64,000 nucleotides of DNA, taken from contig JBMNLX010000001.1 of the NCBI GenBank assembly GCA_050953085.1, positions 187,234-251,233 on the forward strand, written 5' to 3'. The position numbers and the translations under genes were made by a program. Below, one piece after another: positions 4,827 through 61,665 of this stretch. The notes below the pieces were generated by a model. That model made no database searches. It was not told where the DNA came from and saw only the letters and a list, made by a program, of their open reading frames with translations. Within the stretch, counting starts at the first letter, position 1. Every line of letters starts with the position of its first letter. Source of the DNA: Bacilli bacterium. Its GTDB lineage: Bacteria > Bacillota_I > Bacilli_A > ML615J-28 > CAG-698.

Positions 4827-6296
4827 ATGAAGGACGGGATTGTAAAAAACACGATAATACTAATCGCGACGAGCATGATCATCCGCGTCTTAAGTCTCGT
4901 TAACCGGATCGTTCTCACCCGCCTACTCGGGGAGGAGGGGATCGCGTTATACGTTATCACCCTCCCCTCGCTCGGTCTTTTCATGACTTTCGCGGGCTTT
5001 TCCCTAAACATCGCGGTAAGCAAGGTAATCGCGGAAAACGCCGTCACCGGCAGACACTCGGAGAAAAAGATCCTCTCGGTCGCGGTCGCGATTGGCCTCG
5101 CGGTCTCGGCGGCGACGATCCTGCTCGCGCTCGCGATTCTAAAGCCTCTCATCGTTTACGGTCTGAAACAGGAAAACGCCTTTTTTCCGCTTCTGGCGTC
5201 CGTCTTTTTTCTTCCTCTGATCGCTTTAAACAATGTCTTCCGCGGTTATTTTAACGGGAAAAACCGAATGGCGACGAGCGCTTACGCGACTCTCGTCGAG
5301 CAGGTAAGCCGGATCGCCTGCGCTTTCCTCCTTTTGTATCTTTTCTTATCCCGCGGCCTGATTATCGCCGTGACGCTCGCGGTGCTTGCGATGGGGGGAG
5401 GAGAGATTGTTTCGCTCGCGTTTATTCTTTGGAAAATGCGGAAGGAAAGACCGCGCCCGAACGCGTCGACCGCCCCGCCAACGAACGCGCTTCTGAAAGT
5501 CGCGATTCCGACCACCGCCTCGCGCCTGGTCGGAACCTTTACATACTTTTTAGAGCCGATTGTCTATACCGCCGCGTTGACTTTGGTCGGCCTCGGACCC
5601 GGGGAGATCCTCCGCCGCTACAGCGCGATCACCGCCTACGGCATCCCCCTCATTACCCTTTGCTCGTTCGTCTCGACCTCGATCGCGACCGTCGTTATCC
5701 CGAGCATCTCAAAAAGCCGCGCTCTCGGGAACGACCGGATGGTAAATTACTATATAAAAAAGTCCTGCCTTCTCTCCCTCGTCCCGGGAATCTTAATCAG
5801 CGTTCTCATAACCGCCTACGGGCGCGATTATATGCTTTTGATTTACGGGACGGAAACGGGAAGCGTTTATGCGGAAAAACTCGGGGGGCTTTTTATCCTC
5901 TTTTATCTTCACGCCCCGCTCGCCGCCGTGATGCAGGCCGTCGGCCGGTCGCGGGTCCTGTTCCGGGTTTCGCTCATAACAAGCGTCATTAAGCTCGGGC
6001 TTATTTTCGGGCTCGCTTTTATCCCCCGCGTCGCCCACGATTCCTTAATCGCCGCGCTTCTCGTCAATACTTACCTCTCAACCGCCTGGATCTACTTCTA
6101 TTTGAAAAACAACTTCAAATTCAGGTTTTCCTTCGCGGAGATTCTGAACGTTTTGATTTTGACCGCGCTCACGATTTCAACCCACATTATATTAAAAGCA
6201 GGCTTTTCCAATTACCTGCTTAATACCGTCTTGCTTGCGCTTATGTTTTTCATCTACTGTAAAGCGTTAAAAATTACACGTTTCGATTATAAATAG
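4827..6296 (+). CDS. spoVB: SpoVB-like MOP-family flippase
   Basis: Polytopic membrane protein, LTRLLGEEGIALY, FRGYFNG, EQVSRI; same neighbourhood as B. subtilis spoVB (yrbG, apt). Confidence 0.8.
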   Translation: MKDGIVKNTIILIATSMIIRVLSLVNRIVLTRLLGEEGIALYVITLPSLGLFMTFAGFSLNIAVSKVIAENAVTGRHSEKKILSVAVAIGLAVSAATILLALAILKPLIVYGLKQENAFFPLLASVFFLPLIALNNVFRGYFNGKNRMATSAYATLVEQVSRIACAFLLLYLFLSRGLIIAVTLAVLAMGGGEIVSLAFILWKMRKERPRPNASTAPPTNALLKVAIPTTASRLVGTFTYFLEPIVYTAALTLVGLGPGEILRRYSAITAYGIPLITLCSFVSTSIATVVIPSISKSRALGNDRMVNYYIKKSCLLSLVPGILISVLITAYGRDYMLLIYGTETGSVYAEKLGGLFILFYLHAPLAAVMQAVGRSRVLFRVSLITSVIKLGLIFGLAFIPRVAHDSLIAALLVNTYLSTAWIYFYLKNNFKFRFSFAEILNVLILTALTISTHIILKAGFSNYLLNTVLLALMFFIYCKALKITRFDYK

Positions 6297-6992
6297 CTTC
6301 TTGTTCTCGTAATTGGCGTAAAGGATTTCTTTTTCCGATTGATATCCTTTTTTCTTAATTTCCTTGCGCAGCCAATCCTCGCTCAAGTTAAGAAGCTTGA
6401 GATTGTCCTTATGGATCTTTCCGGAAACGATTAGCGGGAACGGGTAGATTTCTTCCGGCGCCGACGCCGCGTCGTACCCGCCGTCGGTTTTCCCGGTCGG
6501 GTTATGGGCCGTGGTCGTTTTTGTTTTCGGATCGCGCGAGGGAAAATCCTTGAATTTAAAAATGCTAATCTCGCCGTTCGCCTCGAGGACGGCGTATTTT
6601 ATTTCCGAAAGCGAGCGGATGTTTTTAATCCGCATCTGGACGATCAAATCGTCGACGTTGTACGACTGCTTCTTCATCTCCTTGACGTTAAGTTTCCCGT
6701 CGATCATAATAATTGATTCCTTGCCGTCGAAAAAGTCGCGAATCGGCTTCACCTTAAGCAGGATGACCGCCAATATTTTTTGGATCACGCCCAAAAGCAG
6801 AATCGAAAGCAAGGTCATATAAAAGGGTACGGAGCCGTCCTCGGCGCCGATTACGGCGATATCGGCGATGAGCAACACGACGACGAAGTCAAAAAGGCTC
6901 AATTGCCCGATCTCCCTTTTGCCCATGAATTTAAGCAAGAATAAAATGAAGAAATAAATCGCCAAAACCTTAAGCAACAACATCCAGTCCAT
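6267..6992 (-). CDS. DUF421 (YetF/YrbG) membrane protein
   Basis: MGKREIGQLSLFDFVV and AVLEANGEIS motifs. Confidence 0.9.
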   Translation of the reverse strand: MDWMLLLKVLAIYFFILFLLKFMGKREIGQLSLFDFVVVLLIADIAVIGAEDGSVPFYMTLLSILLLGVIQKILAVILLKVKPIRDFFDGKESIIMIDGKLNVKEMKKQSYNVDDLIVQMRIKNIRSLSEIKYAVLEANGEISIFKFKDFPSRDPKTKTTTAHNPTGKTDGGYDAASAPEEIYPFPLIVSGKIHKDNLKLLNLSEDWLRKEIKKKGYQSEKEILYANYENKKLFIIETCNF

Positions 6993-7056: not shown

Positions 7057-7443
7057 ATGAAAAGAATAAAAAGAAAACTTTTTGTCTATCTTTGCTTCCT
7101 GTTTATTATTTCCATATTCAGCGGCGTTTATGCGTTGTTAATCTTTCTTGGGAAAGCCGACAGCCAACTGGCCGCTTTTAACACCGTCACCTTTATTTTG
7201 GGCGTCGCCGCGTTTTTTATACTCGGCTTTCTCGCCGGCAACACCGCGCAAAAAAACGGTCTCCTGGAGGGCTTGATCGCCGCGCTCGTCGTTATTTTGA
7301 TAACGCTCGCGCTTAACTTTTTCATCCAGGTGCCGTTCGTGGCGAAATCGTTCGTCAAAACGGCGAGTTTTCTTACGAGCTCGGCCTTGGGCGGGATCAT
7401 CGGCGTCAATTTCCGTTCCGTTTTGCCGGTTAAGGAAGAATAG
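7057..7443 (+). CDS. YrzE/TIGR04086-type four-TM membrane protein
   Basis: GFLAG...KNGLLEG and LGGIIGVN motifs; synteny with yrbG-spoVB. Confidence 0.75.
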   Translation: MKRIKRKLFVYLCFLFIISIFSGVYALLIFLGKADSQLAAFNTVTFILGVAAFFILGFLAGNTAQKNGLLEGLIAALVVILITLALNFFIQVPFVAKSFVKTASFLTSSALGGIIGVNFRSVLPVKEE

Positions 7444-7491: not shown

Positions 7492-8742
7492 ATGGAACCT
7501 TTGGCTCATAAAATGCGACCGCGGACGCTGGACGAAGTGATCGGCCAGGCGCACCTGGTCGGGAAGAACGGCGTTATCCGCCGGATGGTCGAAAACCGGC
7601 GGCTTTCTTCCCTGATACTCTACGGCGACCCCGGCACCGGCAAGACGACGATCGCGCTCGCGGCTTGCGCCGACCTCGGGTTTCCCCGCCACACGTTTAA
7701 CGCCAGCACCGACAACAAGGCGACCTTGAAAGAGATTATCGATTTCGCCCGCCTACAACCGGAAACGGTGATAATCGTCGACGAGATTCACCGGATGAAA
7801 AAAGACATCCAGGATTATCTTTTGCCGTTTGTCGAGCGGGGCGATTTGATTTTGATCGGGATCACGACCGTTAACCCGTATCATTCGGTGAACCCGGCGA
7901 TCCGCTCGCGAACTTTGATTTACAAACTGCGCGAGTTGACCGAAGAAGATTTGCGCGTCGCTTTCAACCGCGCGCTTGCGAATCTCGATAAAGAACTAAA
8001 GTTTTCGCCCGACGCCGAGAATTATCTTATCGGCATGGCGGGCGGCGAGATCCGTTCGCTAATCAACATGGTCGAGGCCGCGGCCTTTGCTTCGCGCGCG
8101 GGCGAGGAAATCACTCTCGATCTCGCAAAATCAATCGTCCTCCGTCCCGCCGTCCATATCGATAAAAGCGACGATAATTACTACGATACTCTAAGCGGCC
8201 TGCATAAATCAATCCGCGGCAGCGATCCCGACGCCGCGCTTCATTATCTGGCTAAGCTTCTTACCGCCGAGGATTTTCTGCCGCTTGTTCGCCGCTTGTA
8301 CTGCATTTGTTATGAGGATATATCGCTCGCGAACCCGGCGATGGGGCCGAAGGTCAGAGCCGCGTGCGAGGCGGCGCTTGAGCTCGGGATGCCGGAAGCA
8401 AGACTCCCGCTCGCGAGCATCGTCGTCGACATGGCCCTCTCGCCGAAATCAAACAGCACTTATAAGGCGATTGAGACGGCGATGAAGGATATCGCGGAAG
8501 GCAGAAGCGGCCCTTTGCCTTTGCATTTAAAAAATATCGGTTCCTTCGATCCGCGGCAGACGCCGTACAAATATCCCCACGATTATCCGGGCTCCTGGGT
8601 CGACCAGCAATACCTTCCCGACGCCATCCGCGACCGGAAATACTACTTCCCCAAGGACTCGAGCAAGTACGAGGAAGCGCTCGGCGAGCGATACCGCGCG
8701 ATCGAGAACGCGAAAAAGAAAAACAAACAAAACGACCGTTAA
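7492..8742 (+). CDS. rarA: Replication-associated recombination protein A
   Basis: PLAHKMRPRTLDE, Walker A GDPGTGKT, DEIHR, HKSIRGSDPDA, YKYPHDY. Confidence 0.95.
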   Translation: MEPLAHKMRPRTLDEVIGQAHLVGKNGVIRRMVENRRLSSLILYGDPGTGKTTIALAACADLGFPRHTFNASTDNKATLKEIIDFARLQPETVIIVDEIHRMKKDIQDYLLPFVERGDLILIGITTVNPYHSVNPAIRSRTLIYKLRELTEEDLRVAFNRALANLDKELKFSPDAENYLIGMAGGEIRSLINMVEAAAFASRAGEEITLDLAKSIVLRPAVHIDKSDDNYYDTLSGLHKSIRGSDPDAALHYLAKLLTAEDFLPLVRRLYCICYEDISLANPAMGPKVRAACEAALELGMPEARLPLASIVVDMALSPKSNSTYKAIETAMKDIAEGRSGPLPLHLKNIGSFDPRQTPYKYPHDYPGSWVDQQYLPDAIRDRKYYFPKDSSKYEEALGERYRAIENAKKKNKQNDR

Positions 8743-8756
8743 ACGGTCGCTTTTTA
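8731..8756. terminator. Bidirectional terminator between rarA and the spoIIIE-like gene
   Basis: CGACCGT-taa-ACGGTCG hairpin with A/T flanks. Confidence 0.6.
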
Positions 8757-10493
8757 TTTGAGATGACTTTTTACCGCGTCGATATCCTTTTTCGAAACGA
8801 GCGCCGTCTGGAGCCGGCGCGCCTTGATTTGGCTTAAGTAAAAACAATCGCCTTCGGCTTGAAGAAAAGTCGCGTTTTCGTTATTGATGATTTTTTGCGA
8901 GAAAAGGCCGCTTTCGAGTTTAAAAACAAGTTTATTGGGAAAAAGGCTCAATACGATGCTCGTCGCGTACATCGCGTCGCGAACGACGTATAACACCGTG
9001 ATTCCCGCTTTTTCCCCGAGTTGGATAATATACATCAACTTGTTTTCGAAATAAGAATATGTTTCCTTATCACAATCAAGCCGATTGATAATAATGAACT
9101 TTCGGCGCATGCGGAGTTCGGAACTATTCTCAATCTCGAGTTTCTTGTTATACTCGTCCATCGAGGAGACCCCGGCGCCGTTGATCGTTTTCAGTTTCGC
9201 GTCGATCTCCGCGATCACCGCCGTCAGGAACTCGTTCACGTCGCCGCCCGTTTCTGTCGGAATGAGATTGTGAAGAACAAAGAGCTCGCCTTTCCCGTCG
9301 TAAAGCTCGATTTCATAATTGAGCAGGTTTTCTTTTACAAAAAGAGCGAAAACATAGAAATTTACGAAATTCCTTATGCCGGTCTTCTCGCTGCCGATAA
9401 GAAGCAAATGTCCGTTTTGCGAGACGTCAAGCTCGCAGAGCTTGTTTTCGTAAGTTAAGCCGAGCGGCATGATAAAATTACTCCGCAGGCTGCTTTGTTT
9501 CATCAAAAGTTCCCGCATTGTGAGGATTTGCGGGTATTTGTTAACGATTTGAATCATGAGCGCGCTCCCGTCGCGGGCAAGCAAAAGATCTTCCTCGATA
9601 ACGTTGTTCAGCCGTTCGAGAAGCTTCGTCGTCTCAAACTCGGAGAAAACGGTGAATTTATAAGTCGTGACTTTATACGAGACGGTTAAATCAAGATCGC
9701 GGTACTCGATATGGAGATTATTGAAAACGGAATGAATCAGGCTCCGCGTTTCGTAGGCGGTTTTTTCCTGAAAATTATAATTCATGACGTTCTGATATTC
9801 TTCCAGAATCTTAAGCGGGACCTGTTGCGCCTTCGCGAAGATATTCTTTTTCTCCGCCGGCTGTCCGCGGCGGCCGAGGTCATATTTAAAGAAACGGTTA
9901 AACCGCTTACCGAGATGCCCGACGTCTTTGACCTTCCGTCCGAAAGTTTTGAATATATCGACGATCGGCATGTCGATAATGAGCGAGACACCCAGCATCA
10001 GGATAAACGCGCCGGCGAGGACGACCCCGACCGTGCCGATTAAGTAATAGACCACGTAAAACATTACCGCTCCGAGCATCCCGCCGCCAAGATACATTTC
10101 GCTGCCGGAGTTGATGTATTGACGGTACAGGGACCATGTTTCCGCGAAATAGTTCCTGTTCCTTTGCTTGATTAAATTATGGATCGGAAAATGAGCGAAG
10201 ATGAGCAAACTGAAACAAATAAACACGCAGCCGATAAAGCGCGGGTTTTTAAAGTCGAAACTCTTATGACGCAAAAGACTTAAAAAGCCGTAAAACATTA
10301 AAAAGACGATAAAAATCCAATACCAGTCGCCGAAAATAACTTTGAAAAAAACGGCTAAAAAATAGCCAATCTTCCCCAGACGGCCGAGAATCGTTATCGC
10401 GAGTATTATGCATATTACCCCGACGAGTTCGTAGTAAAACAGCGTTTCTTCCTTTTCTTTCTCGTCGGCGCTGCGCTTCTTCTCTTTACCCAT
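8754..10493 (-). CDS. SpoIIIE/FtsK homolog with degenerate ATPase motifs and no gamma domain
   Basis: SpoIIIE-type N-terminal TM domain (YELVG...FGDWYW...GGGMLG); motor-like region with HLLLIGSEKTG in place of Walker A and IIINRLD in place of Walker B. Confidence 0.8.
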   Translation of the reverse strand: MGKEKKRSADEKEKEETLFYYELVGVICIILAITILGRLGKIGYFLAVFFKVIFGDWYWIFIVFLMFYGFLSLLRHKSFDFKNPRFIGCVFICFSLLIFAHFPIHNLIKQRNRNYFAETWSLYRQYINSGSEMYLGGGMLGAVMFYVVYYLIGTVGVVLAGAFILMLGVSLIIDMPIVDIFKTFGRKVKDVGHLGKRFNRFFKYDLGRRGQPAEKKNIFAKAQQVPLKILEEYQNVMNYNFQEKTAYETRSLIHSVFNNLHIEYRDLDLTVSYKVTTYKFTVFSEFETTKLLERLNNVIEEDLLLARDGSALMIQIVNKYPQILTMRELLMKQSSLRSNFIMPLGLTYENKLCELDVSQNGHLLLIGSEKTGIRNFVNFYVFALFVKENLLNYEIELYDGKGELFVLHNLIPTETGGDVNEFLTAVIAEIDAKLKTINGAGVSSMDEYNKKLEIENSSELRMRRKFIIINRLDCDKETYSYFENKLMYIIQLGEKAGITVLYVVRDAMYATSIVLSLFPNKLVFKLESGLFSQKIINNENATFLQAEGDCFYLSQIKARRLQTALVSKKDIDAVKSHLK

Positions 10494-10804: not shown

Positions 10805-10960
10805 TTATCTCTTAGTTTTTTCGCGATGTAATGTTTGTTTTCGACACTTCGGGCAGAACTTCATTTGTTCTAACCGATCGGGAGTATTTTTTTTATTTTT
10901 TTCCGTTAAATAATTTTCCTCATTACATACCGTACAACGCATCAAGAATGTTACACGCAT
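10805..10960 (-). CDS. rpmG: 50S ribosomal protein L33, Zn-binding (C+) form
   Basis: Hand-translated 51 aa: [51 protein letters not shown]; AGGAGG RBS; below the ORF-track length cutoff. Confidence 0.95.
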
Positions 10961-11049: not shown

Positions 11050-12254
11050 TGTTATGTTACAATACATATGAGACTTATTGTTGAATAAAAAGCAAAAGTG
11101 ATTTATACTCGACCATGTGAAGAAGAAAACAGGCAAATTTTCTTCTAGGAGAGGAGTATAAATCACATGGCCATTATATCACAAAAATTTCACGATATCA
11201 AGACTAAACTACATGCAGTGTTACAGCTTACCGCACGGGAAAGTACTCGGTTTATCACGTGTGCCTGAAGTATCACATTTCCAAAGCCTCGCTTATGCGT
11301 TGGAACAGAGGCCTATGACGGGACTAACGAATCTTTGATGGAGAAGAGTAGGAGACCTCACACGCCGCATCCCAATAGGTCATACGGATTCTTGAAATAA
11401 ACAAAATCAAAGACTTGATTAAACGCAATCCCAATATCGGGCTTACGGAACTGTATACGAAACTAAGGTCGCCAAATCGCTTATTCAAGGCATTATTGCC
11501 AGCTTATATCGCGTTTTAATACGAATAGGGTATTACGTCAACAGCTCAAACGCCAAAGAAGCCCTACAAGCCTCAAAAAATACCACACACCGGAGCTTTT
11601 GGGTGAAAAGATGCAATTAGACGTGAAATATATCCCAAGAGAATGTAACGCGAACGAGAATGACGATAATCGGTATTACCAGTACACGATCATCGATGAA
11701 GCTAGCAGGGAGAGGTTTATCTATGCCTATAATGAGCTTTCATCGTATAGTTCCGTAGACTTTTTGTGACAGAGCCCTGTGTCACTTCGGATACGCGCCA
11801 AAGATTATTCAAACCGATAACGGTCAGGAATTCTCGTACTTTCAGGAAACCCAGAGAGTTCACCCGTTTGATCTAGCGTAGTGAGAAACTTGGAATCCTG
11901 CATAAAACTATCAAACCCAGGACCCCAAGGCATAACGGGAAAGTGGAACGAAGCCATAGAAGCGATAATGAACGATTCTATCGGACTTTAAAATTCTACA
12001 GTTTTGAAGATCTTCAAAAACAGATGCGAAGATATTTACGCCGGTCTAACCGTATCGGCATGACGCCTCTTAATTACAGGACTCCGGTTGAGATGCGGGA
12101 ATACTTGATTTCCAAACGGTATGGTGAACTTACTCAAAAGCCATTCTCTAAAAAATTCGCGTCCAGACAATAAGGGGGACACATTCCCCCTTAAACCCCT
12201 TTGTTATCTTCTTCTTTCTTATTCTTTTAGTCTCATATCATTTACAATCTTACA
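11050..12254 (+). mobile_element. IS481/IS1202-like insertion sequence (1205 bp)
   Basis: TGT...ACA ends; 26-bp imperfect terminal IRs (18/26 match, shared ATATGAGACT); flanking 26-bp direct repeat; internal DDE transposase. Confidence 0.88.
11167..12173 (+). pseudogene. DDE transposase, multiply frameshifted as sequenced
   Basis: Reconstructed segments HISKASLMRWN, SRRPHTPHPN, QLDVKY, QTDNGQEF, PRTPRHNG.KVERSH lie in changing frames. Confidence 0.85.
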
Positions 12255-25826: not shown

Positions 25827-25942
25827 AATTTCTTTCTTTATAACATTAAGCAGGAAAATATCCTAGATTTTATCTTTATACTCTCATTAATTTATACGAA
25901 GCGGCGATTCCATGATATTCAGGTGGCATATTACCCGTTCCT

Positions 25943-26224
25943 ATGCCAGACGAAAAAAACTTTGGTTCAAATCTGGAGTACATAGGAAAACATATTCCAT
26001 ATGCAAGTTCAGCAAAGCTTGATTTGAAAGCACGCCAACCATTTGGAGGTGACCTTCGGGTCTTCTTAACCTTTGACGACGGAAGAAAGGTTTTTGCGCT
26101 GGTCAAATGGTTTCAGAAAGAACTCGGTGTTGCTGACATTCCGGTCGGCTCAAAAGTAAATCTGATCTATACAAGAAACAAAGCAGGCAATGTTTTTATG
26201 ACCGGAATTGAGGTGATGGAATGA
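25943..26224 (+). CDS. Hypothetical protein
   Basis: 93-aa ORF, protein-like composition, co-oriented with the recombinase. Confidence 0.45.
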   Translation: MPDEKNFGSNLEYIGKHIPYASSAKLDLKARQPFGGDLRVFLTFDDGRKVFALVKWFQKELGVADIPVGSKVNLIYTRNKAGNVFMTGIEVME

Positions 26225-26332
26225 TACGTGTCATTGACTTAGCAAGCATCGCCTTTGGGAACCCAAAGTCAGTTGTTGTTGGGTAGGCCCAAACCCTTAA
26301 GCTCATCGACAAAAAAGAAATGGAGGAATGAA

Positions 26333-26512
26333 ATGACGGGAAAAGAAAAAGCAAACTACATATTGCAGGTGAAGGATATATTCTCACAAAAACGCACAGC
26401 CGCCGAAATTTTTGCAGAGCTCATTCTGACCGAGCGTAAAAATGTCACAAAAAGTTACTGGACGAAGCCGAAGTCAAAAGCTATAATGAAGCTGTCGACT
26501 GTCAAATCCTAA
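26333..26512 (+). CDS. Small protein preceding the recombinase
   Basis: GGAGG RBS, 59 aa MTGKEKANYILQVKDIFS...; contains a TGGACG-N17-TATAAT promoter match (26459-26487). Confidence 0.45.
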   Translation: MTGKEKANYILQVKDIFSQKRTAAEIFAELILTERKNVTKSYWTKPKSKAIMKLSTVKS

Positions 26513-26540
26513 TTTGGTTGTTCAGTTTCAGGAGGTAAAC

Positions 26541-28172
26541 ATGGAACAACAAAGGATTTATAGCGGTACAGGGTACCGTGCAGCCATTTACTGTCGTCTG
26601 TCAAAGGACGACGAACAAGCCGGAGAAAGCATTAGTATCGGCACACAAAAGTCTATGCTGGAGAGCTACTGCCGTGAACAGGGCTTTCTGGTATACGATT
26701 ATTATGTAGATGACGGATATTCCGGCCTTAACTTCAACCGCCCCGGCTTTGAACGGATGCTCAATGATATTGACAACGGTAAGGTAAACCTTGTCATTAC
26801 CAAAGATTTAAGCCGTTTAGGACGTGACTACATTCAGACCGGCTATTACACCGAAGTGTATTTCAGCCGTAAGCATGTGCGGTATATTGCCCTGAATGAC
26901 CGTTTTGATTCCATGCGAGACGACAATGACATTGCACCGTTCAAGAACATTCTGAACGATATGTACGCAAAGGATCTGTCCCGTAAGGTCAAAGCAGCGA
27001 AAAGGCAACGAGCCAAGAACGGTTTCTTCATCAGTGCGCAGGCACCATACGGGTACAAGCCGAACCCCCATAACCGCAATCAATTGATTGTAGATGAAGA
27101 AGCTGCCAACGTAGTAAAGAAAATCTTTGCACTGGCGCTGTCCGGTTACGGTGCAGTAAAAATCGCTAAAGCATTGAAAGCGGAACGAATCATCAATCCA
27201 TCCGCTTACAAGGCAAAAAACGGCGATACACGCTTTTCACGGTACAATGACAACCAAAACCCTAACAAGGTCTATGAATGGTGTTATGCCACCATACAGA
27301 TTATCTTGCAAGATCGGGTTTACACCGGGGATATGGTCAATCACAAGTGTGAGATTGTCAATTACAAGACCAAGGAAAGGCAAACCCTGCCGAAAGAGCA
27401 ATACATAATTGTACCGAATACCCATGAGCCCCTTGTCAGCCGTGAGGATTTTGAGCAGGTGCAAATGTTGATCAAGTCCCGTCCGTCACCAACGATTTAT
27501 GAAACAGAGAACTTGTTCCGTGGGGTTCTGGTTTGTTCTGAATGCGGTCACAGTCTGTCTATGGCTCATCGTCGGGATAAGCGAGCCTATTACCGCTGTA
27601 TGCACCATTACCGCCATCCTGACGAATGTCTGCATACACATGCCATCTTTTACGATGACCTGTACAAAGTGGTTTTAGAGCGTATCAGGGCAACAGCAAG
27701 GCTATTGCAGGATGATGAAGCCTTTTACCGGCTGGTGGAAGAAAAATCCGGAATCAATACGTCTGATAAGCAATTGGCTACCGAGCGTGACAAGCTGAAA
27801 CGCAGACAGCAGGAACTTTCCACACTGCTTTTCAAGCTGTTTGAGGATCACGCTGCCGGACTGATATCCGATGAGAACTATGTAGCTTTCACAAACAGAT
27901 ACCAGTCCGAGCAGACGGAAATCCAAGAGAAAATTGTTTTGCTTGATTCAAAGCTGGAGCAACAGAGAGATTATCAGGCTAATGCAGAGCAGCTTCGCGA
28001 AGCAATCTCTGCCTATCTGAATATTGACTCATTAACGCCGTTCATCTTGAATAAGCTCATCGAGAATATTCAGGTTGGACATGCAGAAACGATCAATGGA
28101 CAGACAGTGCAGGAAATTACAATCGTGTGGAGATTTGCTGGGGAGGTTAATTCTGTAAAATGTTCATGCTAG
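26541..28172 (+). CDS. Large serine recombinase (TnpX/TndX-like)
   Basis: YCRLSKDD catalytic Ser, DDGYSG, KDLSRLGR, APYGY, Zn ribbon CSECG...YYRC; GGAGG RBS before MEQQR. Confidence 0.95.
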   Translation: MEQQRIYSGTGYRAAIYCRLSKDDEQAGESISIGTQKSMLESYCREQGFLVYDYYVDDGYSGLNFNRPGFERMLNDIDNGKVNLVITKDLSRLGRDYIQTGYYTEVYFSRKHVRYIALNDRFDSMRDDNDIAPFKNILNDMYAKDLSRKVKAAKRQRAKNGFFISAQAPYGYKPNPHNRNQLIVDEEAANVVKKIFALALSGYGAVKIAKALKAERIINPSAYKAKNGDTRFSRYNDNQNPNKVYEWCYATIQIILQDRVYTGDMVNHKCEIVNYKTKERQTLPKEQYIIVPNTHEPLVSREDFEQVQMLIKSRPSPTIYETENLFRGVLVCSECGHSLSMAHRRDKRAYYRCMHHYRHPDECLHTHAIFYDDLYKVVLERIRATARLLQDDEAFYRLVEEKSGINTSDKQLATERDKLKRRQQELSTLLFKLFEDHAAGLISDENYVAFTNRYQSEQTEIQEKIVLLDSKLEQQRDYQANAEQLREAISAYLNIDSLTPFILNKLIENIQVGHAETINGQTVQEITIVWRFAGEVNSVKCSC

Positions 28173-28575
28173 AAATAATTTTGTCTACTTTTTTCAGCTC
28201 AGAGGTTTTCTTTTCACTTTGATAAGTTGCAAAAACAACTTTAGGATATCTTGCAATAATCCAAAGCTTGATAAACCATTGGTCAGGGGTAGTTCCCATT
28301 CCATATAATACGGTTTTTTCTCTTTGGGTACTATCAAGGATAAGTGCATGATTTAATTTTATATGATTAGCGTCAATAAATTTTTTTGCCATTATACTTA
28401 TATGCTCATCTAAAGTTTCTTGTAATTCCATAATGGTATAGTATGATAAAGTTAGTGCCCCTTCTCCATCAGGACAATAGACTGAGGTTGTATCAACATC
28501 ATCTTCAATTTCCCAACCCATTGGTATTTCATATTCTAAATAATCTTTGTGTTTGATTTTCATCATAATCACCAT
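28147..28575 (-). CDS. Putative immunity protein (DUF3805-like)
   Basis: Directly downstream of the toxin tip; P.GW...YCPDGEGALTLS pattern. Confidence 0.6.
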   Translation of the reverse strand: MVIMMKIKHKDYLEYEIPMGWEIEDDVDTTSVYCPDGEGALTLSYYTIMELQETLDEHISIMAKKFIDANHIKLNHALILDSTQREKTVLYGMGTTPDQWFIKLWIIARYPKVVFATYQSEKKTSELKKVDKIISSMNILQN

Positions 28576-29106
28576 CTAATCATAAAGTTTTAGAACGCCT
28601 GTCCATTCTCCACCATACTGTTGGCTTGCAGCTGTTGTATATCTTTCTAACTGGGCAAGTCCTCTTGATATAGCCTGAGAATTATTGGGTTTTAATTCAT
28701 AAATAATTTTATTATTAAAATCGATTCCATCAACTCTACAACCTGGAGCAATCTTTTGTTCTTTTAAAACACCGGGTCCATAGTCCATTTGTTTGTGCAT
28801 TGCTTGCCCTTTTTGGACAGCAGCCTTGACTTTTGGATTTTGTGTTCCTTTCCCAGATGAAGTAGATGAAGTAGATCCTCGTGTTGATAGATATGCACTT
28901 CCTCCTGCAACAACAGCAGACCCTACAGTTCCAGCAACCGTTCCCCAATTGCCTTGAGCACCAAAGTCACTCAAAGAGCTTGAATTTTCAGCTGCGGACA
29001 TCGCAGATACTCCAAGATATGTGGCCGATCCTATAAATGCTGCGGCGGAAACTGTTGCAGCTGCGCCTCCTATTGGTGCTATCTCTAACGGCTTTCCTAT
29101 ATTCAA
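28576..29106 (-). CDS. Orphan RHS toxin C-terminus, PD-(D/E)xK nuclease (Tox-REase-9-like)
   Basis: Gly/Ala-rich pre-toxin linker, then GQAMHK...RVDGIDFNNKIIYELKPNN...QLERY; no RHS core and no good ATG. Confidence 0.75.
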   Translation of the reverse strand: MNIGKPLEIAPIGGAAATVSAAAFIGSATYLGVSAMSAAENSSSLSDFGAQGNWGTVAGTVGSAVVAGGSAYLSTRGSTSSTSSGKGTQNPKVKAAVQKGQAMHKQMDYGPGVLKEQKIAPGCRVDGIDFNNKIIYELKPNNSQAISRGLAQLERYTTAASQQYGGEWTGVLKLYD

Positions 29107-29154
29107 TTTCTATTTTTAAGTCTTGATAATGCCTTACTTCCTTAGGCCCGGGTT

Positions 29155-29760
29155 TTACTTTTCCAACTTGCTGATAGCCTTCTTTGCTTCACGGCGAATC
29201 CAGGCTTTTTCATGATTCAAAAATGGTTCTATATAGGGTATTAAATCTTTGTTTTTGTAATATTTCATGGCTACTATAATATGACCATTAATGTCTTCAT
29301 CATCTAATAAATTAATGAATGAATCGATTGCCTTGGCGCTTTTTAGTCTGCCGAGGAGCCAAACAAACATTTGCCGGGATGTCCCATTCTTTTTGTCATT
29401 AATGATTTTTATGTATTCATCCTCATATCGTTTATCCTTGATGTTATCGATCGTCGCTCCAATAGCCCACTTGTATGAGTTATTATCGCTGGAGTGGAAT
29501 TCTTCAAGCAAAGTTTCGGTCGCGTCATAAAAACCCCTTACGCCTAACGATCTGACAACAATCTGCTTCCATTGCGGTGACTTAAGCAGTTTTAAGTGTT
29601 TCAGTAAAACAGGAATGAGAACTTTATCCTGTTTTGATATCGCTCCAATTTGAAGATAGTTCTTGTAATTATACCCGCAATCATTTACTTCCTTCAGTAA
29701 TTGACTATCAATTAATTTTCCATCGATTGGACGTAAATCCTGACCGTTTTTGTTTTCCAT
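29155..29760 (-). CDS. HEAT-repeat protein, putative immunity protein
   Basis: HEAT-like helices (IVVRSLG, WAIGATI, WIRREAKKAI); GGAGG RBS; follows the RHS remnant. Confidence 0.75.
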   Translation of the reverse strand: MENKNGQDLRPIDGKLIDSQLLKEVNDCGYNYKNYLQIGAISKQDKVLIPVLLKHLKLLKSPQWKQIVVRSLGVRGFYDATETLLEEFHSSDNNSYKWAIGATIDNIKDKRYEDEYIKIINDKKNGTSRQMFVWLLGRLKSAKAIDSFINLLDDEDINGHIIVAMKYYKNKDLIPYIEPFLNHEKAWIRREAKKAISKLEK

Positions 29761-29764
29761 TTAA

Positions 29765-30881
29765 CTAACCTCCTATTAATTTAAATATCATTTCTCTTGA
29801 ATCTTTTAAATCTTGTAAGGTGCGAGACAGAACAGTATCATTTCTTTTTTCATGCCTTTGAGTACTAACTGGCAAACTCGGGAACCCAAAGTTAATGTTA
29901 GCGCATTTAAAAAGGGCATCCACGGAAAAAGACCCGGAATCGAGATACAATAAATTTCGATAAACAAAATCCTTATATTCAGCAACCTTAAAAGCTTTAT
30001 CGGGCGCTTTATCAGGTACGAAATCAGGCATTATTGGTAGGTTTGCAGTTTGAACTTGACAATAACCGTGAATATCTCCCACTATGGCTCCGGTTATCGC
30101 CCCCGACCATAAATCCATCTGCAGCGCCGTTTAGCACAGCTTCACCTATTCCTGAAAAACTGCCGGTATTCACTAAATGCACTCCAGCGCTTACAGCAGC
30201 GCTCCTAGAGTACCGTAAACTGCACCAGATATCGCCCCCTTCAACGCGCTCGCTGCAACCACCGCAACAAGCCCTGTAGCTGCAGCTGCCACAGTTGCAA
30301 TAACAGCTGCGCTAATTAGGAGTTTTTTTGCCGACTTTGGCCAATACCTCGCATCATCAAGCATGTTTACCGGATTATTGGCGCAATAGCAATATAGATT
30401 TGTCTCACCCGATAATATCATGCTAATATCTAATAAATCTCCCTATAAAGGAATCATAATACTTTGAGTTAAGATAATAGAATTTAGTCTCGGCATCATA
30501 ATAGTAACTTTTAATCTGAACAGATTTTTCTCGCCCAGTCCGATTCCTCTATTATCGAAGATCCTAGCAGGTTTAGTTTCTTCGTATTAATATCATCCCC
30601 TAAATATATGAAAATGTTAACCAATTTATAATATTACGATACTTATCCCCATTTTTTATTTTGATGATTATATTTTATAACATAATATTCCAAAGGGCAA
30701 GTATAAAAATTATTAAGATATTGCCTATAATGCCTCTAACATAATAATATTCATTACAAGTGAGATTATCATTGAGTTTTACAAATCCATATAATCTTTC
30801 TGCTTCATCATACAAAAAATCATAAATGCCTTTGCTTATTAGTTTAGATTCTTCATAAATTAATGTATATTCGAACGACAA
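29765..30881 (-). pseudogene. Decayed RHS repeat-associated core gene
   Basis: Fragments in different frames: EYYYVRGIIGNI, YYYDAETKFYYLNSKYYDSFIGRFI (~30430-30510), NLYCYCANNPVNMLD, Ala/Gly-rich linker. Confidence 0.85.
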
Positions 30882-58692: not shown

Positions 58693-61311
58693 CTATTTTT
58701 CGTATTCGCTAAGCAACCTTTCGATTTCTTCTTTTTGTTTCAAGTAATCGGCGAGTTTTTCCCTTTCAATCGCGATCTTATCCGCCGGCGCTTTTTGAAT
58801 AAACTTCTCGTTCGAAAGCAAACTCCGGCAACGCGCGATTTCCGCTTCCGTCTTTTCAAGGCTCGCCCTTAGTTTCGCCTTTTCTTCCTCAATGTTTACA
58901 AGCTGGGCCATGGGAACGGCGACGGTCAAGGCCGGGTAAACGACGAGCGCCTTGCCGGTCGTCTCAATCGCTTTCCCGCCAAAAGTAATCTCGCGGTAGT
59001 TCGCGAACCGCTTTATAAAAGGAAGATGCGCTTCGATTAAGGCGACTGTCTCTCGATCCCGCGCCTCGATTTCCAAATCGACGGGCTTGTGGTAAGAGAC
59101 GTTCTTTTCGGCGCGGATGCCGCGGACGGCGGTAATGATATCATAAATAATCTCGGCGCGGCTCGCGTCGGGAAAATCAAATTCCGGACGCGCTTCCGGC
59201 CAGGGGGCGACCGTGATGCTTCCCGGGTTAAAACGTTGGTATATTTCCTCGGTCACAAACGGCATGATCGGGTGAAGCAATTTCAAAACCGCGGTCAAGA
59301 CATAAGCCAGGACGGCGCAGGTAGATTGCATTTGCTTTTTATCATCGCCCGAAAAGACGACTTTCGTTAGCTCGAGATACCAGGAAGCAAAATCATCCCA
59401 AACAAATTTATATATCGGCCGCGTCGCTTCGCCGAACTCGTATTTATCAAAGTTTTCGTCGGCCGACCTAATCGTCTCGTTTAGCCGCGAAAGAATCCAG
59501 CGGTCAAAAAGCGTGAGTTTTTCCTTCGCTATCGGCCGGCCGTCGTAGCCCGCGGTCGCGAAATTAAGACCGATATAACGCGAGATATTCCAGATTTTAT
59601 TGATATAGTTCCACGCGGCCTCGACTTTCTCCTCGGAGAAACGCAAATCAAGGCCCGGGGTCGCCGCGGTGCTTAAGAAATAGCGGAGACTGTCCATTCC
59701 GTAACGGGCGTGGATATCATGAATCTCGATATAATTACCGAGCGATTTGCTTACCTTCCTTCCCTTTTCGTCGCGGATTAACCCATGAATCAAAACGTCG
59801 CGGAAAGGGCGGACGCCAAGAAAATGCTTCGACTGGAAAGCCATCCGCGCGACCCAGAAGAAAATGATGTCATAAGCGGTAACCAAAACGTCGGTGGGGA
59901 AATATCTTTCTAAATCGGGCGCCTTCTCGGGCCAACCAAGCGTCGAGAACGGCCAAAGGGCGCTAGAAAACCAGGTGTCAAGAACGTCCTCGTCCTGGAC
60001 CCACCCTTCGCCTTTCGGGGCCTCGTGACCGACGCGAATCTCGTCGCCGCGATACCATGCCGGGATCCGGTGCCCCCACCATAACTGCCGGGAAATGCAC
60101 CAGTCCTGAATATTCTCAAGCCATTCCGTGAAAGTCCTCTCAAAACGCTCGGGGAAGAAATGGATCTTTCCTTCCGTCCTCTGCATTTTCAAGACTTCTT
60201 CCGCCAGGCGCTCCATGGCGACGAACCACTGCTTCGAAAGGCGCGGCTCGACGACTACCCCGGTCCTTTCGCTGTGCCCGACGGAGTGGATGATCTTCTC
60301 GATCTTTTGAAGCAACCCGTTTTCCTTTAATGCGGAAACAACGGCTTCACGGCAGGCGAAGCGCTCCATGCCCTCGTATTTCCCGGCGAGCGCGTTCATC
60401 GTGCCGTCCTCGTTCATGCAGTGCGGCATCGGCAGGTTATGCCGGAGCCCGACCTCAAAGTCATTGGGGTCGTGGGCCGGCGTGACCTTAACGATACCGG
60501 TCCCGTATTCGATATCGACATAATCGTCGGCGATAACGGGGATTTTCCGGTCGGTTTCGGGAATGATAACCTCCCGCCCGATTAAATCGCGGAAACGCTC
60601 GTCCTCGGGGTTTACCATTAAAGCGACGTCGCCGAACATCGTTTCCGGACGGGTAGTGGCGACGGTCAAGCCGCCCTGAGTCCCGTCGGCGAAAGGATAA
60701 GTAATATAGTAAAGCGCCCCCTCGATTTCGTGATAGATTACCTCGATGTTGGATAGGGCCGTTTTGCTTTGAACGTCCCAATTGATAATCCGCTCGCCCC
60801 GGTAAATTAATCCTTCGTTATAAAGCTGGATGAAGACCTCGTTAACGGCGCGATTAAGTCCCTCGTCGAGCGTGAACCGCTCGCGCGTGTAATCAAGGCT
60901 AAGGCCGATTATTTCCCATTGCTCACGGATAAAGGAAGCGTATTTTTCTTTCCACTCCCAACAGACCTCCAGAAAACGCTCGCGACCCATATCATACCGG
61001 TTTTGCCCTTTTTTTCTTAGATCGGATTCAACCCGGGCTTGCGTCGCAATACTGGCGTGATCCATCCCCGGAAGATATAAGACGTCGTATCCTTGCATTC
61101 TTTTACGGCGGACGAGGATATCCTGAAGCGTCGTGTTAAGGACGTGACCGATATGAAGTTTTCCCGTGATGTTCGGGGGCGGAATCACAATCGTATACGG
61201 TTTTTTGTTTTCGTCGCCGGCGGTAAAATAACCTTCTTTAATCCACCGCCGGTATTTGCCTTTCTCGACGGAATTAAAATCATACTTTGTCGGCAAATCT
61301 TTTAATTTCAT
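58693..61311 (-). CDS. valS: Valine--tRNA ligase
   Basis: PPPNITGKLHIGH, DWCISRQLWWGH, KVSKS; start at MKLKDLP after GGAGG RBS. Confidence 0.98.
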   Translation of the reverse strand: MKLKDLPTKYDFNSVEKGKYRRWIKEGYFTAGDENKKPYTIVIPPPNITGKLHIGHVLNTTLQDILVRRKRMQGYDVLYLPGMDHASIATQARVESDLRKKGQNRYDMGRERFLEVCWEWKEKYASFIREQWEIIGLSLDYTRERFTLDEGLNRAVNEVFIQLYNEGLIYRGERIINWDVQSKTALSNIEVIYHEIEGALYYITYPFADGTQGGLTVATTRPETMFGDVALMVNPEDERFRDLIGREVIIPETDRKIPVIADDYVDIEYGTGIVKVTPAHDPNDFEVGLRHNLPMPHCMNEDGTMNALAGKYEGMERFACREAVVSALKENGLLQKIEKIIHSVGHSERTGVVVEPRLSKQWFVAMERLAEEVLKMQRTEGKIHFFPERFERTFTEWLENIQDWCISRQLWWGHRIPAWYRGDEIRVGHEAPKGEGWVQDEDVLDTWFSSALWPFSTLGWPEKAPDLERYFPTDVLVTAYDIIFFWVARMAFQSKHFLGVRPFRDVLIHGLIRDEKGRKVSKSLGNYIEIHDIHARYGMDSLRYFLSTAATPGLDLRFSEEKVEAAWNYINKIWNISRYIGLNFATAGYDGRPIAKEKLTLFDRWILSRLNETIRSADENFDKYEFGEATRPIYKFVWDDFASWYLELTKVVFSGDDKKQMQSTCAVLAYVLTAVLKLLHPIMPFVTEEIYQRFNPGSITVAPWPEARPEFDFPDASRAEIIYDIITAVRGIRAEKNVSYHKPVDLEIEARDRETVALIEAHLPFIKRFANYREITFGGKAIETTGKALVVYPALTVAVPMAQLVNIEEEKAKLRASLEKTEAEIARCRSLLSNEKFIQKAPADKIAIEREKLADYLKQKEEIERLLSEYEK

Positions 61312-61323
61312 AACGCACCTCCA

Positions 61324-61565
61324 TAAAAAAAAGTCCTTATCATTAGATAAGGACGAAATATTCCGCGGTACCACCTTACTTCGCAGGGAATACAAAAAAA
61401 TCCCGGCGCGCTCAAATGCCTTTAACGCAAGGCGATACGGGTATTGCTACTAAAATTCGCGATACCGGCTCCAAGGCGACCTTCGCGACCCCGCGGGAGA
61501 CTTTTCACCAACCAGCCTCTCTCTGCGACCTACCGCAAGCCGCTACTCCTCCTTTTCATAGCCTT
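61324..61565 (-). promoter_or_regulatory. T-box riboswitch (Val)
   Basis: T-box AAGGTGGTACCGCG (~61364-61377), AGTA/AGAGA/GGTGAA stem I motifs, candidate GUC specifier, terminator GTCCTTATC...GATAAGGAC plus T-run. Confidence 0.92.
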
Positions 61566-61665
61566 TGTTTCTTAATTATAAACTATTATATGATAACCAC
61601 GCGCAAAAGTCAATATTTTTAATAATTATTTAGCGTTTCTTTATTAAGCGCAGTAAAAACTAATT

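Follow-up and report, generated by a model that had tools for sequence, protein, structure and literature searches.

A membrane-anchored relative of the sporulation protein SpoIIIE, here called pseudo-FtsK, is encoded in the window (the whole stretch of DNA analysed, 64,000 nucleotides from a Bacilli bacterium), and it appears from its sequence to be a pseudo-ATPase. The gene is found only in genomes retaining sporulation genes, where purifying selection maintains it, and the one ATP-competent FtsK of the genome is a soluble protein. We consider it fairly probable that the protein is this lineage's SpoIIIE, fixed as a pseudo-ATPase for an ATP-independent role at the septal membrane or pore, and that the soluble FtsK moves the DNA.

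Domain organization

The open reading frame list and the translation confirm an intact frame of 579 amino acids on the minus strand with no interruption, as the preliminary description had read it. The protein is a 100% match to cluster P0002, and its orthologs are 578 to 593 amino acids long. Its sole Pfam match is PF13491 (FtsK_4TM) with 21.8 bits against a gathering score of 23.1; the score was 26.1 bits in the genome search, which included neighbours in frame, and many orthologs exceed the cut-off. Residues G40, G43, G55, H101, GGG136-138, G141, and G156 of the membrane domain are common to canonical 4TM FtsKs, and the linker segment holds a family motif (F198/F201/F202/Y204/G207) that is invariant in alignment A1. 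The features are listed in Table 1.

Table 1. Features of the pseudo-FtsK gene and its 3' flank, in window coordinates
Feature	Position	Strand	Basis
FtsK/SpoIIIE-like putative pseudo-ATPase, whole CDS	8754..10493	-	ORF list and translation; stop codon 8754-8756
Membrane domain, FtsK_4TM type, residues ~21-175	9969..10433	-	PF13491 score; AlphaFold2 helices; conserved residues
Juxtamembrane segment and short linker, residues 176-235	9789..9968	-	pLDDT; invariant A1 columns
FtsK alpha-like domain, residues ~236-325	9519..9788	-	AlphaFold2 secondary structure; Foldseek to FtsK alpha+beta chains
FtsK beta-like (RecA-type) domain with degenerate motifs, residues ~326-579	8757..9518	-	Foldseek; PDB alignments
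Walker A-equivalent HLLLIGSEKTGIR, residues 362-374	9372..9410	-	Alignments
Walker B-equivalent FIIINRLD, residues 466-473	9075..9098	-	Alignments
Terminator-like bidirectional hairpin with T-runs on both strands, between convergent rarA and the pseudo-FtsK gene	8729..8753		Consensus scan, pattern match only

The AlphaFold2 model of the protein has a mean pLDDT of 82.4, with values below 50 at residues 185-214. The top Foldseek matches of the model were the FtsK motors 6t8b, 2iut, 2ius, and 6t8g, with E of about 1e-20 and target-normalised TM scores of 0.71 to 0.77 over about 390 columns at 15% to 17% identity, and the model has the FtsK alpha plus beta (RecA-type) fold. The SpoIIIE-type membrane domain of the preliminary description fits the borderline FtsK_4TM score, and its motor scaffold is supported by the modelled fold. 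In phmmer searches against the PDB the degenerate stretches align with the FtsK P-loop region, and the family profile matches the FtsK motor 2ius with E=7.4e-10. The 579-aa protein itself gave no Pfam match to FtsK_SpoIIIE (PF01580), FtsK_alpha, or FtsK_gamma at E<=10; PF01580 is carried by relatives P0033-P0035 and by Haloplasmataceae-type (f6) members, and the alpha domain PF17854 is present in f6 relatives. The C-terminal end of the protein is the beta domain, and the Pfam search for the gamma domain (PF09397) found no match in it, in keeping with the earlier observation that the frame stops before this domain.

Loss of catalytic motifs

Residues 362-374 read HLLLIGSEKTGIR, whereas the same position in the canonical FtsK of the genome reads HALIAGTTGSGKS. 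The two glycines of GxxxxG are kept (G367 and G372), the lysine position is Ile373 and the Ser/Thr position is Arg374, so that GSEKTGIR (residues 367-374) does not match the Walker A pattern GxxxxGK[ST]. A scan of the whole 579-aa protein for an intact P-loop of this pattern elsewhere, a finding which would have spoken against the initial reading, detected none. Walker B residues 466-473 are FIIINRLD in comparison to IIIIIDELAD in the canonical FtsK of the genome, with Asn470-Arg471 standing where Walker B has Asp-Glu. The Walker A and Walker B loss that had been claimed from the letters alone is therefore confirmed at the aligned positions.

The loss extends through the family. Among all proteins fetched, GxxxxGK[ST] was found in 0 of 117 relatives of 500 to 640 amino acids versus 69 of 69 relatives longer than 640, and the Walker A lysine was absent from 100 of 100 aligned short relatives but retained in 8 of 8 canonical controls. 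Nearly all short members have other residues in place of the Walker B Asp-Glu, the exceptions being P0038 (IAIIDEI), P0049 (INE), P0092 (HEIADL), and P0112 (TEIND). Because close and distant relatives share the motif loss, this copy did not decay alone, and, judging from the alignments, the loss is a family trait rather than chance.

Other catalytic positions appear to be changed as well. According to bioRxiv 2022.01.03.474797, Glu596 is catalytic in P. aeruginosa FtsK, R620 is the arginine finger, and T630-Q631 forms the sensor. Arg471 aligns with Glu596, and in alignments at 15% to 17% identity the sensor Gln631 corresponds to Val504 and the arginine finger Arg620 to Glu494; R632 corresponds to R505 (about 16% identity), which is invariant in A1. 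Because the Walker A and Walker B residues and the gamma domain are lost, and by these alignments probably the sensor and arginine finger too, the protein would not be expected to burn ATP, read DNA, or pump it.

Selection and conservation

Comparison with an ortholog of 88% identity (L002) gave pN/pS of 0.076/0.75 for the whole gene, and 0.055/0.654 for the membrane domain, 0.071/0.745 for the linker and alpha-like domain, and 0.098/0.832 for the beta-like domain. The gene is under purifying selection, with a ratio of about 0.1 in every domain, and its length is kept at 518 to 639 amino acids across all relatives and frames seen. Since the motor-like domain is also under purifying selection, a role of the membrane domain only is not enough. 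The distribution of conservation along the protein is the opposite of that in canonical FtsK: mean pairwise identity in the short family is 0.32 for the TM domain, 0.20 for alpha, and 0.22 for beta, in comparison to 0.25, 0.43, and 0.64 in canonical FtsK, the membrane domain thus being the best-conserved part of the short family.

Genomic position and co-distribution with sporulation genes

In relatives, pseudo-FtsK occupies the slot that an active 4TM FtsK/SpoIIIE occupies in sister lineages. G073 (f15) has an active 4TM FtsK between RNase J and Bmp, and in G065 (f7) a 4TM FtsK follows RNase J; in G143 (f6) and G091 (f4) it is pseudo-FtsK that lies between RNase J and Bmp, and G002 (f2) has RNase J, pseudo-FtsK, and rarA in the same region. 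In the window the gene has rpmG upstream and a convergent rarA, which are housekeeping genes and not a sporulation operon, and the convergent rarA is shared with 5 of the 6 other f1-type loci inspected (L002, L005, L009, L010, and L011, not L008). A FastTree tree of 123 motor domains (56 canonical with TM segments, 15 canonical soluble, and 52 short) placed the short family on long branches apart from all canonical sequences, P0091 and P0092 lying close to the split, and gave no resolution of its sister group (SpoIIIE-type versus SftA-type origin); the case for orthology of the short family therefore comes from synteny and from the 4TM domain. Upstream of the gene, a promoter scan with models that lack the sporulation sigma factors gave weak sigma-70-like matches only. 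Metatranscriptome contigs from four runs in four studies match parts of the gene (depth 2 to 9); such contigs cannot show level, strand, or timing and may include DNA carry-over.

The link to sporulation, which the preliminary description had merely assumed, is now backed by the phyletic pattern. In a sample of 61 genomes of the order, strong full-length pseudo-FtsK matches were found in 44 of 44 SpoIVA-positive genomes (42 of which exceed the SpoIVA cut-off) and in 0 of 17 SpoIVA-negative genomes, Spo0A was found in 43 of 44 carriers and 0 of 17 non-carriers, and carriers and non-carriers contrast even inside single genera (g8 and g13). In the class sample, with 200 genomes scored, 31 of 31 carriers were SpoIVA-positive and 0 of 133 SpoIVA-negative genomes carried pseudo-FtsK. 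The co-occurrence is perfect, but since related genomes are not independent, fewer independent events lie behind it than the counts suggest. The family thus has both the orthologous position and the distribution tied to endospore formation that define the SpoIIIE class, the sporulation phenotype of the carriers, MAGs among them, being taken from their genes. In the window's own genome, which is 94% complete, SpoIIIAE had no match at E<=0.001 and SpoIIE scored 190 bits, under its cut-off.

The soluble FtsK of the genome

A second motor elsewhere in the genome had been implied as one of two possibilities, and one was found. The single PF01580 match in the genome is an FtsK of 662 amino acids (L001:586-2571) with alpha, beta, and gamma domains, intact Walker motifs, and an N-terminus that is not hydrophobic, and the only gamma domain of the genome, on contig C9, is in this protein. 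Pfam FtsK_4TM is too insensitive for TM-bearing FtsKs (0 of 5 f4/f6 genomes matched, short proteins included), and TM segments in canonical FtsKs were therefore called by hydrophobicity windows instead. By this measure 14 of 14 canonical FtsKs checked in f1, f2, f4, and f6 were soluble, whereas the control FtsKs of G065 and G073 bear N-terminal TM segments. The single-contig genomes G091 and G129 show no further FtsK beyond the two paralogs. The soluble FtsK is present with or without sporulation genes, and no sporulation-specific feature was found in its N-terminus, the same short motifs occurring whether sporulation genes are present (10 genomes) or absent (4 genomes).

Proposed role and alternative explanations

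As described in PMC13627676, about three quarters of the chromosome reaches the forespore of B. subtilis through pumping by SpoIIIE, a membrane-bound ATPase whose TM domain places it at the septal midpoint. The same source reports that the septal pore and compartmentalisation become unstable when SpoIIIE is lost, and that the translocation-dead spoIIIE36 and D584A alleles have a limited effect on compartmentalisation. We propose that pseudo-FtsK would assemble at the asymmetric septum via its membrane domain, probably as a ring formed through its motor-like domain, and that in this state it would give the pore in the septal membrane its organisation, its seal, or its stability. The chromosome would be moved by the only ATP-competent FtsK of the genome, the soluble, SftA-like, alpha-beta-gamma protein. 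A role in membrane fission or scaffolding would fit both the inverted conservation pattern and the B. subtilis literature.

A different possibility, which we regard as rather unlikely, is a DNA pump split over two proteins, with pseudo-FtsK as a subunit of the translocase or as its docking ring. The motor-like domain would then form mixed or stacked rings with the soluble FtsK and hold it at the septal membrane, the two together rebuilding SpoIIIE. The halves are indeed complementary, an anchor without ATPase and gamma domain and an ATPase with gamma domain but no anchor, and they are so in each of the 10 spore-gene-bearing genomes for which the canonical FtsK was examined; purifying selection on the motor-like domain and the want of any other FtsK in the two single-contig carriers point the same way. 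However, one would expect stronger conservation of an interface shared within a ring, and the motor-like domain evolves fast (identity 0.20 to 0.22) whereas the soluble FtsK motor is highly conserved; nor does the soluble FtsK have a sporulation-specific docking feature, its N-terminal motifs being the same in the 4 genomes without sporulation genes. That the protein is still an enzyme, binding or slowly hydrolysing ATP at a non-canonical nucleotide site made of GxxxxG and nearby basic residues such as Arg374 or Lys495, seems improbable to us. G367, G372, and K495 are invariant in the 22-sequence alignment A1 and the close clade has mostly K or R two positions past the second glycine, but P0035-P0037 have T there and the diverse set shows no conservation of this residue, the acidic residues of Walker B are missing in nearly all members, and only 9 motor-domain positions reach at least 70% conservation in 65 diverse members.

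Two further readings, that pseudo-FtsK serves division or the membrane in general with no tie to sporulation and that it is a remnant in decay, are highly improbable. The former would agree with housekeeping neighbours in place of a sporulation operon, and with low-depth RNA-library contigs that are silent on developmental timing; the co-distribution with SpoIVA and Spo0A in both the order and the class samples argues against it. The decaying pseudogene was rejected, as the frames are intact and conserved in length and pN/pS is about 0.1. A broader reading, less probable than not, may be offered tentatively, namely that a branch of spore-gene-bearing Bacilli comprising the window's order, f4, and the Haloplasmataceae-type lineage has a split SpoIIIE, with an ATP-dead, gamma-less pore ring onto which a soluble FtsK pump docks, or alternatively carries out no post-septational pumping.

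Comparison with known systems

Pseudo-FtsK resembles B. subtilis SpoIIIE and the 4TM FtsK/SpoIIIE proteins of sister lineages (G073, 755 aa; G065, 744 aa) in the probable N-terminal 4TM domain and the alpha/beta motor fold; in relatives it occupies the slot between RNase J and Bmp, and it is likewise tied to sporulation. Unlike SpoIIIE, it is without the Walker A lysine, the Walker B Asp-Glu, and the gamma domain, its linker is short (about 40 to 60 amino acids), and its membrane domain is more conserved than its motor. The spoIIIE36 and D584A alleles likewise give a SpoIIIE which is unable to move DNA and is still in the septal pore; in contrast to these laboratory mutants, the apparently dead state of pseudo-FtsK is natural, fixed, and ancient and occurs in more than 100 sequence clusters, and the soluble FtsK is the only active paralog in pseudo-FtsK genomes. 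This SftA-type paralog belongs to the same superfamily and has the same alpha/beta fold, but differs in having no TM domain, intact Walker A and B motifs, a gamma domain, and a presence independent of sporulation genes. The D2 and D3 ATPase domains of EssC/EccC in type VII secretion have degenerate catalytic motifs. They offer another case of an FtsK-like fold in non-motor use, with structural matches to 4nh0, 4lya, 6tv1, and 9jv8, and they differ from pseudo-FtsK in being fused in cis to the active domain of a secretion ATPase and in having neither the FtsK 4TM domain nor a link to sporulation.

Significance

Pseudo-FtsK may be regarded as a natural separation-of-function mutant, in which the anchored protein is kept as long as the sporulation genes are and the engine is gone. 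It bears on the debated septal roles of SpoIIIE besides DNA movement, namely pore stability, compartmentalisation, and membrane fission, which a natural protein and chimeras now make it possible to test, and it raises the question of how the chromosome is delivered to the forespore when the sole active FtsK is soluble. SpoIIIE/FtsK is counted among the widely conserved sporulation genes in bioRxiv 2022.02.25.481979, and if the split-SpoIIIE or the no-pumping reading were true, the textbook view of a universal membrane-bound SpoIIIE ATPase as a core sporulation function would need revising. We found no description of a pseudo-ATPase FtsK/SpoIIIE of sporulating lineages in the literature outside subscription journals, and in a paper on sporulation loss in these orders (PMC10868615) SpoIIIE and FtsK occur 0 times in the main text. 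Family members are publicly annotated as 'DNA translocase FtsK' or 'hypothetical protein', and because of these names surveys of sporulation gene content will take either paralog for SpoIIIE and overlook the change.

Domain architecture and catalytic motifs

The 579-aa product of the uninterrupted reverse-strand ORF, here called pseudo-FtsK, has the FtsK 4TM domain as its sole Pfam match (21.8 bits against a gathering score of 23.1), with no match to FtsK_SpoIIIE, FtsK_alpha or FtsK_gamma at E<=10 and nothing meaningful in an NCBIfam scan. A phmmer search of PDB sequences gave weak matches to FtsK motor domains (2ius, E=0.024), in which HLLLIGSEKTG of pseudo-FtsK pairs with the P-loop stretch HLLVAGTTGSG, and the motor match improved to E=7.4e-10 when a 22-member family profile replaced the single sequence. 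The AlphaFold2 model, with the 22-member alignment as input, had a mean pLDDT of 82.4 (mostly >85 in the cytoplasmic part) and matched the FtsK motor structures 6t8b, 2iut, 2ius and 6t8g at E of about 1e-20; the alignments span about 390 columns (15-17% identity), with target-normalised TM-scores of 0.71-0.77. The Pfam, profile and model matches thus bear out the SpoIIIE-type membrane domain and motor scaffold of the preliminary description, and pseudo-FtsK also ends, as described there, where gamma would start; its anatomy is a 4TM membrane domain, a short linker and the FtsK alpha and beta fold, without gamma.

Residues 362-374 read HLLLIGSEKTGIR, where the canonical FtsK (with intact Walker motifs) of the same genome has HALIAGTTGSGKS, and residues 466-473 read FIIINRLD at the place of IIIIIDELAD. 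The loss of both Walker motifs therefore stands, as the residues are altered at the aligned positions and a scan of the whole protein found no GxxxxGK[ST] elsewhere. Other catalytic residues were mapped from the phmmer-PDB alignment and the residue roles in P. aeruginosa FtsK, where bioRxiv 2022.01.03.474797 gives Glu596 as catalytic, Gln631 as sensor, Arg620 as arginine finger and Arg632 as DNA-gripping. In this alignment, of about 16% identity, Glu596 falls on Arg471; because identity is so low, the remaining assignments are tentative, with Gln631 possibly corresponding to Val504 and Arg620 to Glu494, and among these roles only that of Arg632 may have a counterpart, Arg505, which is invariant among 22 close relatives. 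Compared with the FtsK/SpoIIIE family, Walker A, Walker B and gamma are missing and the Pfam motor profile is unmatched by the window copy; because these defining catalytic features are missing, we file the protein, on its sequence, as a putative pseudoenzyme variant of FtsK/SpoIIIE and not as a DNA translocase. No published description of such a protein was found in the main text of open-access papers and bioRxiv preprints.

Family-wide motif loss and selection

A word-indexed search returned 37 relatives (518-593 aa, 35-100% identity), named 'hypothetical protein' or 'FtsK 4TM domain-containing protein' in their sources and derived from Bacilli or Acholeplasmataceae MAGs, and an exhaustive phmmer search returned 2751 proteins at E<=1e-3, with 65 cluster representatives at E<=1e-30 and many full-length matches of 540-630 aa at identities down to 23%. 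Motif loss is shared across this short family (500-640 aa): in one alignment the Walker A lysine was gone in 100/100 short members and kept in 8/8 canonical FtsKs, and the Walker B Asp-Glu was missing in nearly all of the 100, with four partial exceptions. Among all sequences fetched, GxxxxGK[ST] occurred in 0/117 proteins of 500-640 aa versus 69/69 proteins >640 aa.

Against the 88%-identical ortholog L002, synonymous sites being saturated in every more distant pair, pN/pS was 0.076/0.75 overall, indicating purifying selection, and by region 0.055/0.654 for the membrane domain, 0.071/0.745 for linker and alpha, and 0.098/0.832 for the beta-like region; the low values in the latter two mean that the dead motor is also under purifying selection. 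Mean pairwise identity among 65 diverse short members was 0.32 for the membrane domain, 0.20 for alpha and 0.22 for beta, compared with 0.25, 0.43 and 0.64 among 8 canonical 4TM FtsKs, so that the constraint pattern is inverted relative to real FtsKs, with the membrane domain and not the motor best conserved. It is mainly the membrane domain that holds the positions at least 70% conserved among the diverse short members, and these positions recur in canonical 4TM domains.

The ATP-competent FtsK and gene neighbourhood

A second motor, one of the two options named in the preliminary description, was located in the same genome (1.8 Mb, 9 contigs, 94% complete), whose one PF01580 match, on contig C9, is a protein of 662 aa that carries FtsK_alpha, FtsK_SpoIIIE and FtsK_gamma and has intact Walker A/B. 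Its N-terminal 190 aa are charged and contain no hydrophobic segment, and the pseudo-FtsK ORF alone matches FtsK_4TM in this genome. Of the canonical FtsKs inspected from families f1, f2, f4 and f6, 0/14 had a hydrophobic window N-terminal to the motor; the FtsK of a control genome, G065 (f7), has five hydrophobic windows, and G073 (f15) has one 4TM and one soluble FtsK. No further FtsK was found in the single-contig genomes G091 and G129. All FtsK_4TM matches in the order sample lay within short pseudo-FtsK frames, except for FtsK_4TM-like matches at G053:C91:6686-7087 (322-aa frame) and G050:C35:12532-12843 (136-aa frame); these two small frames, outside pseudo- and canonical FtsK, may represent either fragments or 4TM proteins in their own right.

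In G073 the active 4TM FtsK (755 aa, alpha-beta-gamma) is flanked by RNase J and a gene for a Bmp/PnrA lipoprotein, and the 4TM FtsK of G065 likewise follows RNase J. The same slot between RNase J and Bmp is filled by pseudo-FtsK, on the same strand, in G143 (f6) and G091 (f4); in G002 (f2) the order is RNase J, pseudo-FtsK and convergent rarA, and convergent rarA adjoins pseudo-FtsK in the window and in five of six other f1-type loci (L002, L005, L009, L010, L011; not L008). Upstream of the f1-type genes lie ispG and a small HTH gene, with rpmG and an IS remnant in between in the window. Because of this synteny chain and the 4TM domain, pseudo-FtsK is, as judged from gene order and domain content, the positional ortholog of membrane-bound FtsK/SpoIIIE; in a tree of motor domains, long branches kept the sister group of the short family from being recovered.

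Co-distribution with sporulation genes

The genome encodes Spo0A (315 bits) and SpoIVA (584 bits); a SpoIIE-like match reached 190 bits, far under its cut-off, and a search for SpoIIIAE (TIGR02829) gave no match at E<=0.001; the set of sporulation genes may thus be reduced or divergent. In the order sample of 61 genomes, 54 had a pseudo-FtsK match at E<=1e-5. In 10 of them the match was weak (E 1e-21 to 1e-10) and paired the C-terminal third with a canonical FtsK frame (677-816 aa); in the other 44 it was strong (E<=4.5e-38) and lay in a frame of about 540-640 aa, which in three genomes (G019, G021, G060) is split or truncated by contig ends. The genomes with a strong match were exactly the 44 with SpoIVA at E<=1e-10 (42 above cut-off), the short family being found in 0/17 SpoIVA-less genomes, and Spo0A was above cut-off in 43/44 carriers (not G046, 92% complete) versus 0/17 non-carriers. 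Carriers and non-carriers occurred within the same genus in g8 (G037 with, G013 without) and g13 (G049 with, G031 without).

In the class sample (200 genomes scored, one unscored; 67 SpoIVA-positive, 133 SpoIVA-negative) the short family was present in 31 genomes (f1 4, f2 12, f4 4, f6 11), of which 31/31 were SpoIVA-positive, and in 0/133 SpoIVA-negative genomes, counts that, like those of the order sample, overstate the number of events because related genomes are not independent. The 36 SpoIVA-positive non-carriers belong mostly to other families, one (G188, f6) being fragmented, and those of their best matches that were listed or inspected fell on canonical FtsKs (670-791 aa). For these same orders PMC10868615 infers several independent losses of sporulation, with which the contrasts within genera and within families are consistent. 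The f6 short-family proteins carry the name 'DNA translocase FtsK' in records of Mycoplasmatota or Haloplasmataceae. Six class-sample genomes of 0.9-1.0 Mb from f7/f8 (G065, G094, G155, G182, G219, G225) had SpoIVA at 490-740 bits, and in G065, G155 and G182 the only FtsK is a 4TM one; all six are candidates for very small genomes with sporulation genes.

Proposed role

In B. subtilis, according to PMC13627676, the TM domain takes SpoIIIE to the mid polar septum, cells without SpoIIIE show an unstable septal pore and miscompartmentalisation, and translocation-dead alleles have a limited effect on compartmentalisation. To these facts our analysis adds that the protein combines a 4TM domain and an alpha/beta fold in the SpoIIIE position, that its whole family has lost the catalytic motifs and gamma, that purifying selection acts most strongly on the membrane domain, that the gene occurs strictly together with sporulation genes, and that the one ATP-competent paralog is a soluble FtsK. 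From all this we infer that pseudo-FtsK would supply an ATP-independent SpoIIIE function at the asymmetric septum, in pore or membrane organisation. It would probably be oligomeric, joined through the motor-like domain, and DNA movement would fall to the soluble FtsK, pseudo-FtsK being likened, in a sequence-based proposal, to the structural half of SpoIIIE. We regard this whole reading as reasonably probable, and are highly confident of the narrower claim that pseudo-FtsK is an ortholog of SpoIIIE, linked to sporulation, and a pseudo-ATPase.

The leading alternative refines this reading: the pseudo-motor would dock the soluble FtsK motor directly, making a split pump, which we consider rather unlikely. 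That the two halves complement each other favours it; the fast evolution of the pseudo-motor next to a highly conserved soluble motor counts against it, and so does the finding of no sporulation-specific feature in the soluble FtsK. Residual enzymatic activity of pseudo-FtsK is poorly supported and very improbable, and a role outside sporulation, or decay, equally poorly supported, is slightly less probable still.

Transcripts and other features of the window

Pseudo-FtsK is partly covered by contigs of four metatranscriptome runs (four studies), with 0-4 differences and a depth of 2-9, such contigs carrying no level, strand or timing information. The IS-like element is covered by contigs of four runs at a depth of about 100-450, which show 16-18 substitutions and 12 single-base gaps relative to the window copy; that copy is therefore a relic, with frameshifts, of an IS that is abundant and expressed, or else its sequence contains assembly indels.

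Features of the window
Feature	Position	Strand	Remarks
SpoVB-like MurJ-family protein	4827-6296	+	245 bits, under 372-bit cut-off; just beyond rarA
241-aa membrane protein	6267-6992	-	no NCBIfam match; just beyond rarA
TIGR04086 family membrane protein	7057-7443	+	just beyond rarA
Terminator-like hairpin, T-runs on both strands	between pseudo-FtsK and convergent rarA		consensus scan
Pseudo-FtsK ORF, 579 aa	8754..10493	-	ORF list and translation
rpmG, ribosomal protein L33, small CxxC...CxxC ORF	10805-10960	-	68 bits; 311 nt upstream of pseudo-FtsK, same strand
IS-like element, short frames	11050-12200	+	rve-type transposase pieces (ORFs 11415, 11599, 11943) in several frames
Large serine recombinase, CcrB/XisF-like	26514-28172		within low-GC stretch
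T-box leader	61346-61568	-	130 bits; upstream of 900-aa ORF 58693-61395; sole Rfam match in window

A probable integrated mobile element lies beside hrcA-grpE-dnaK-dnaJ, at 25900-30200: this low-GC stretch (0.37-0.45) holds the serine recombinase and several small ORFs that matched no family.
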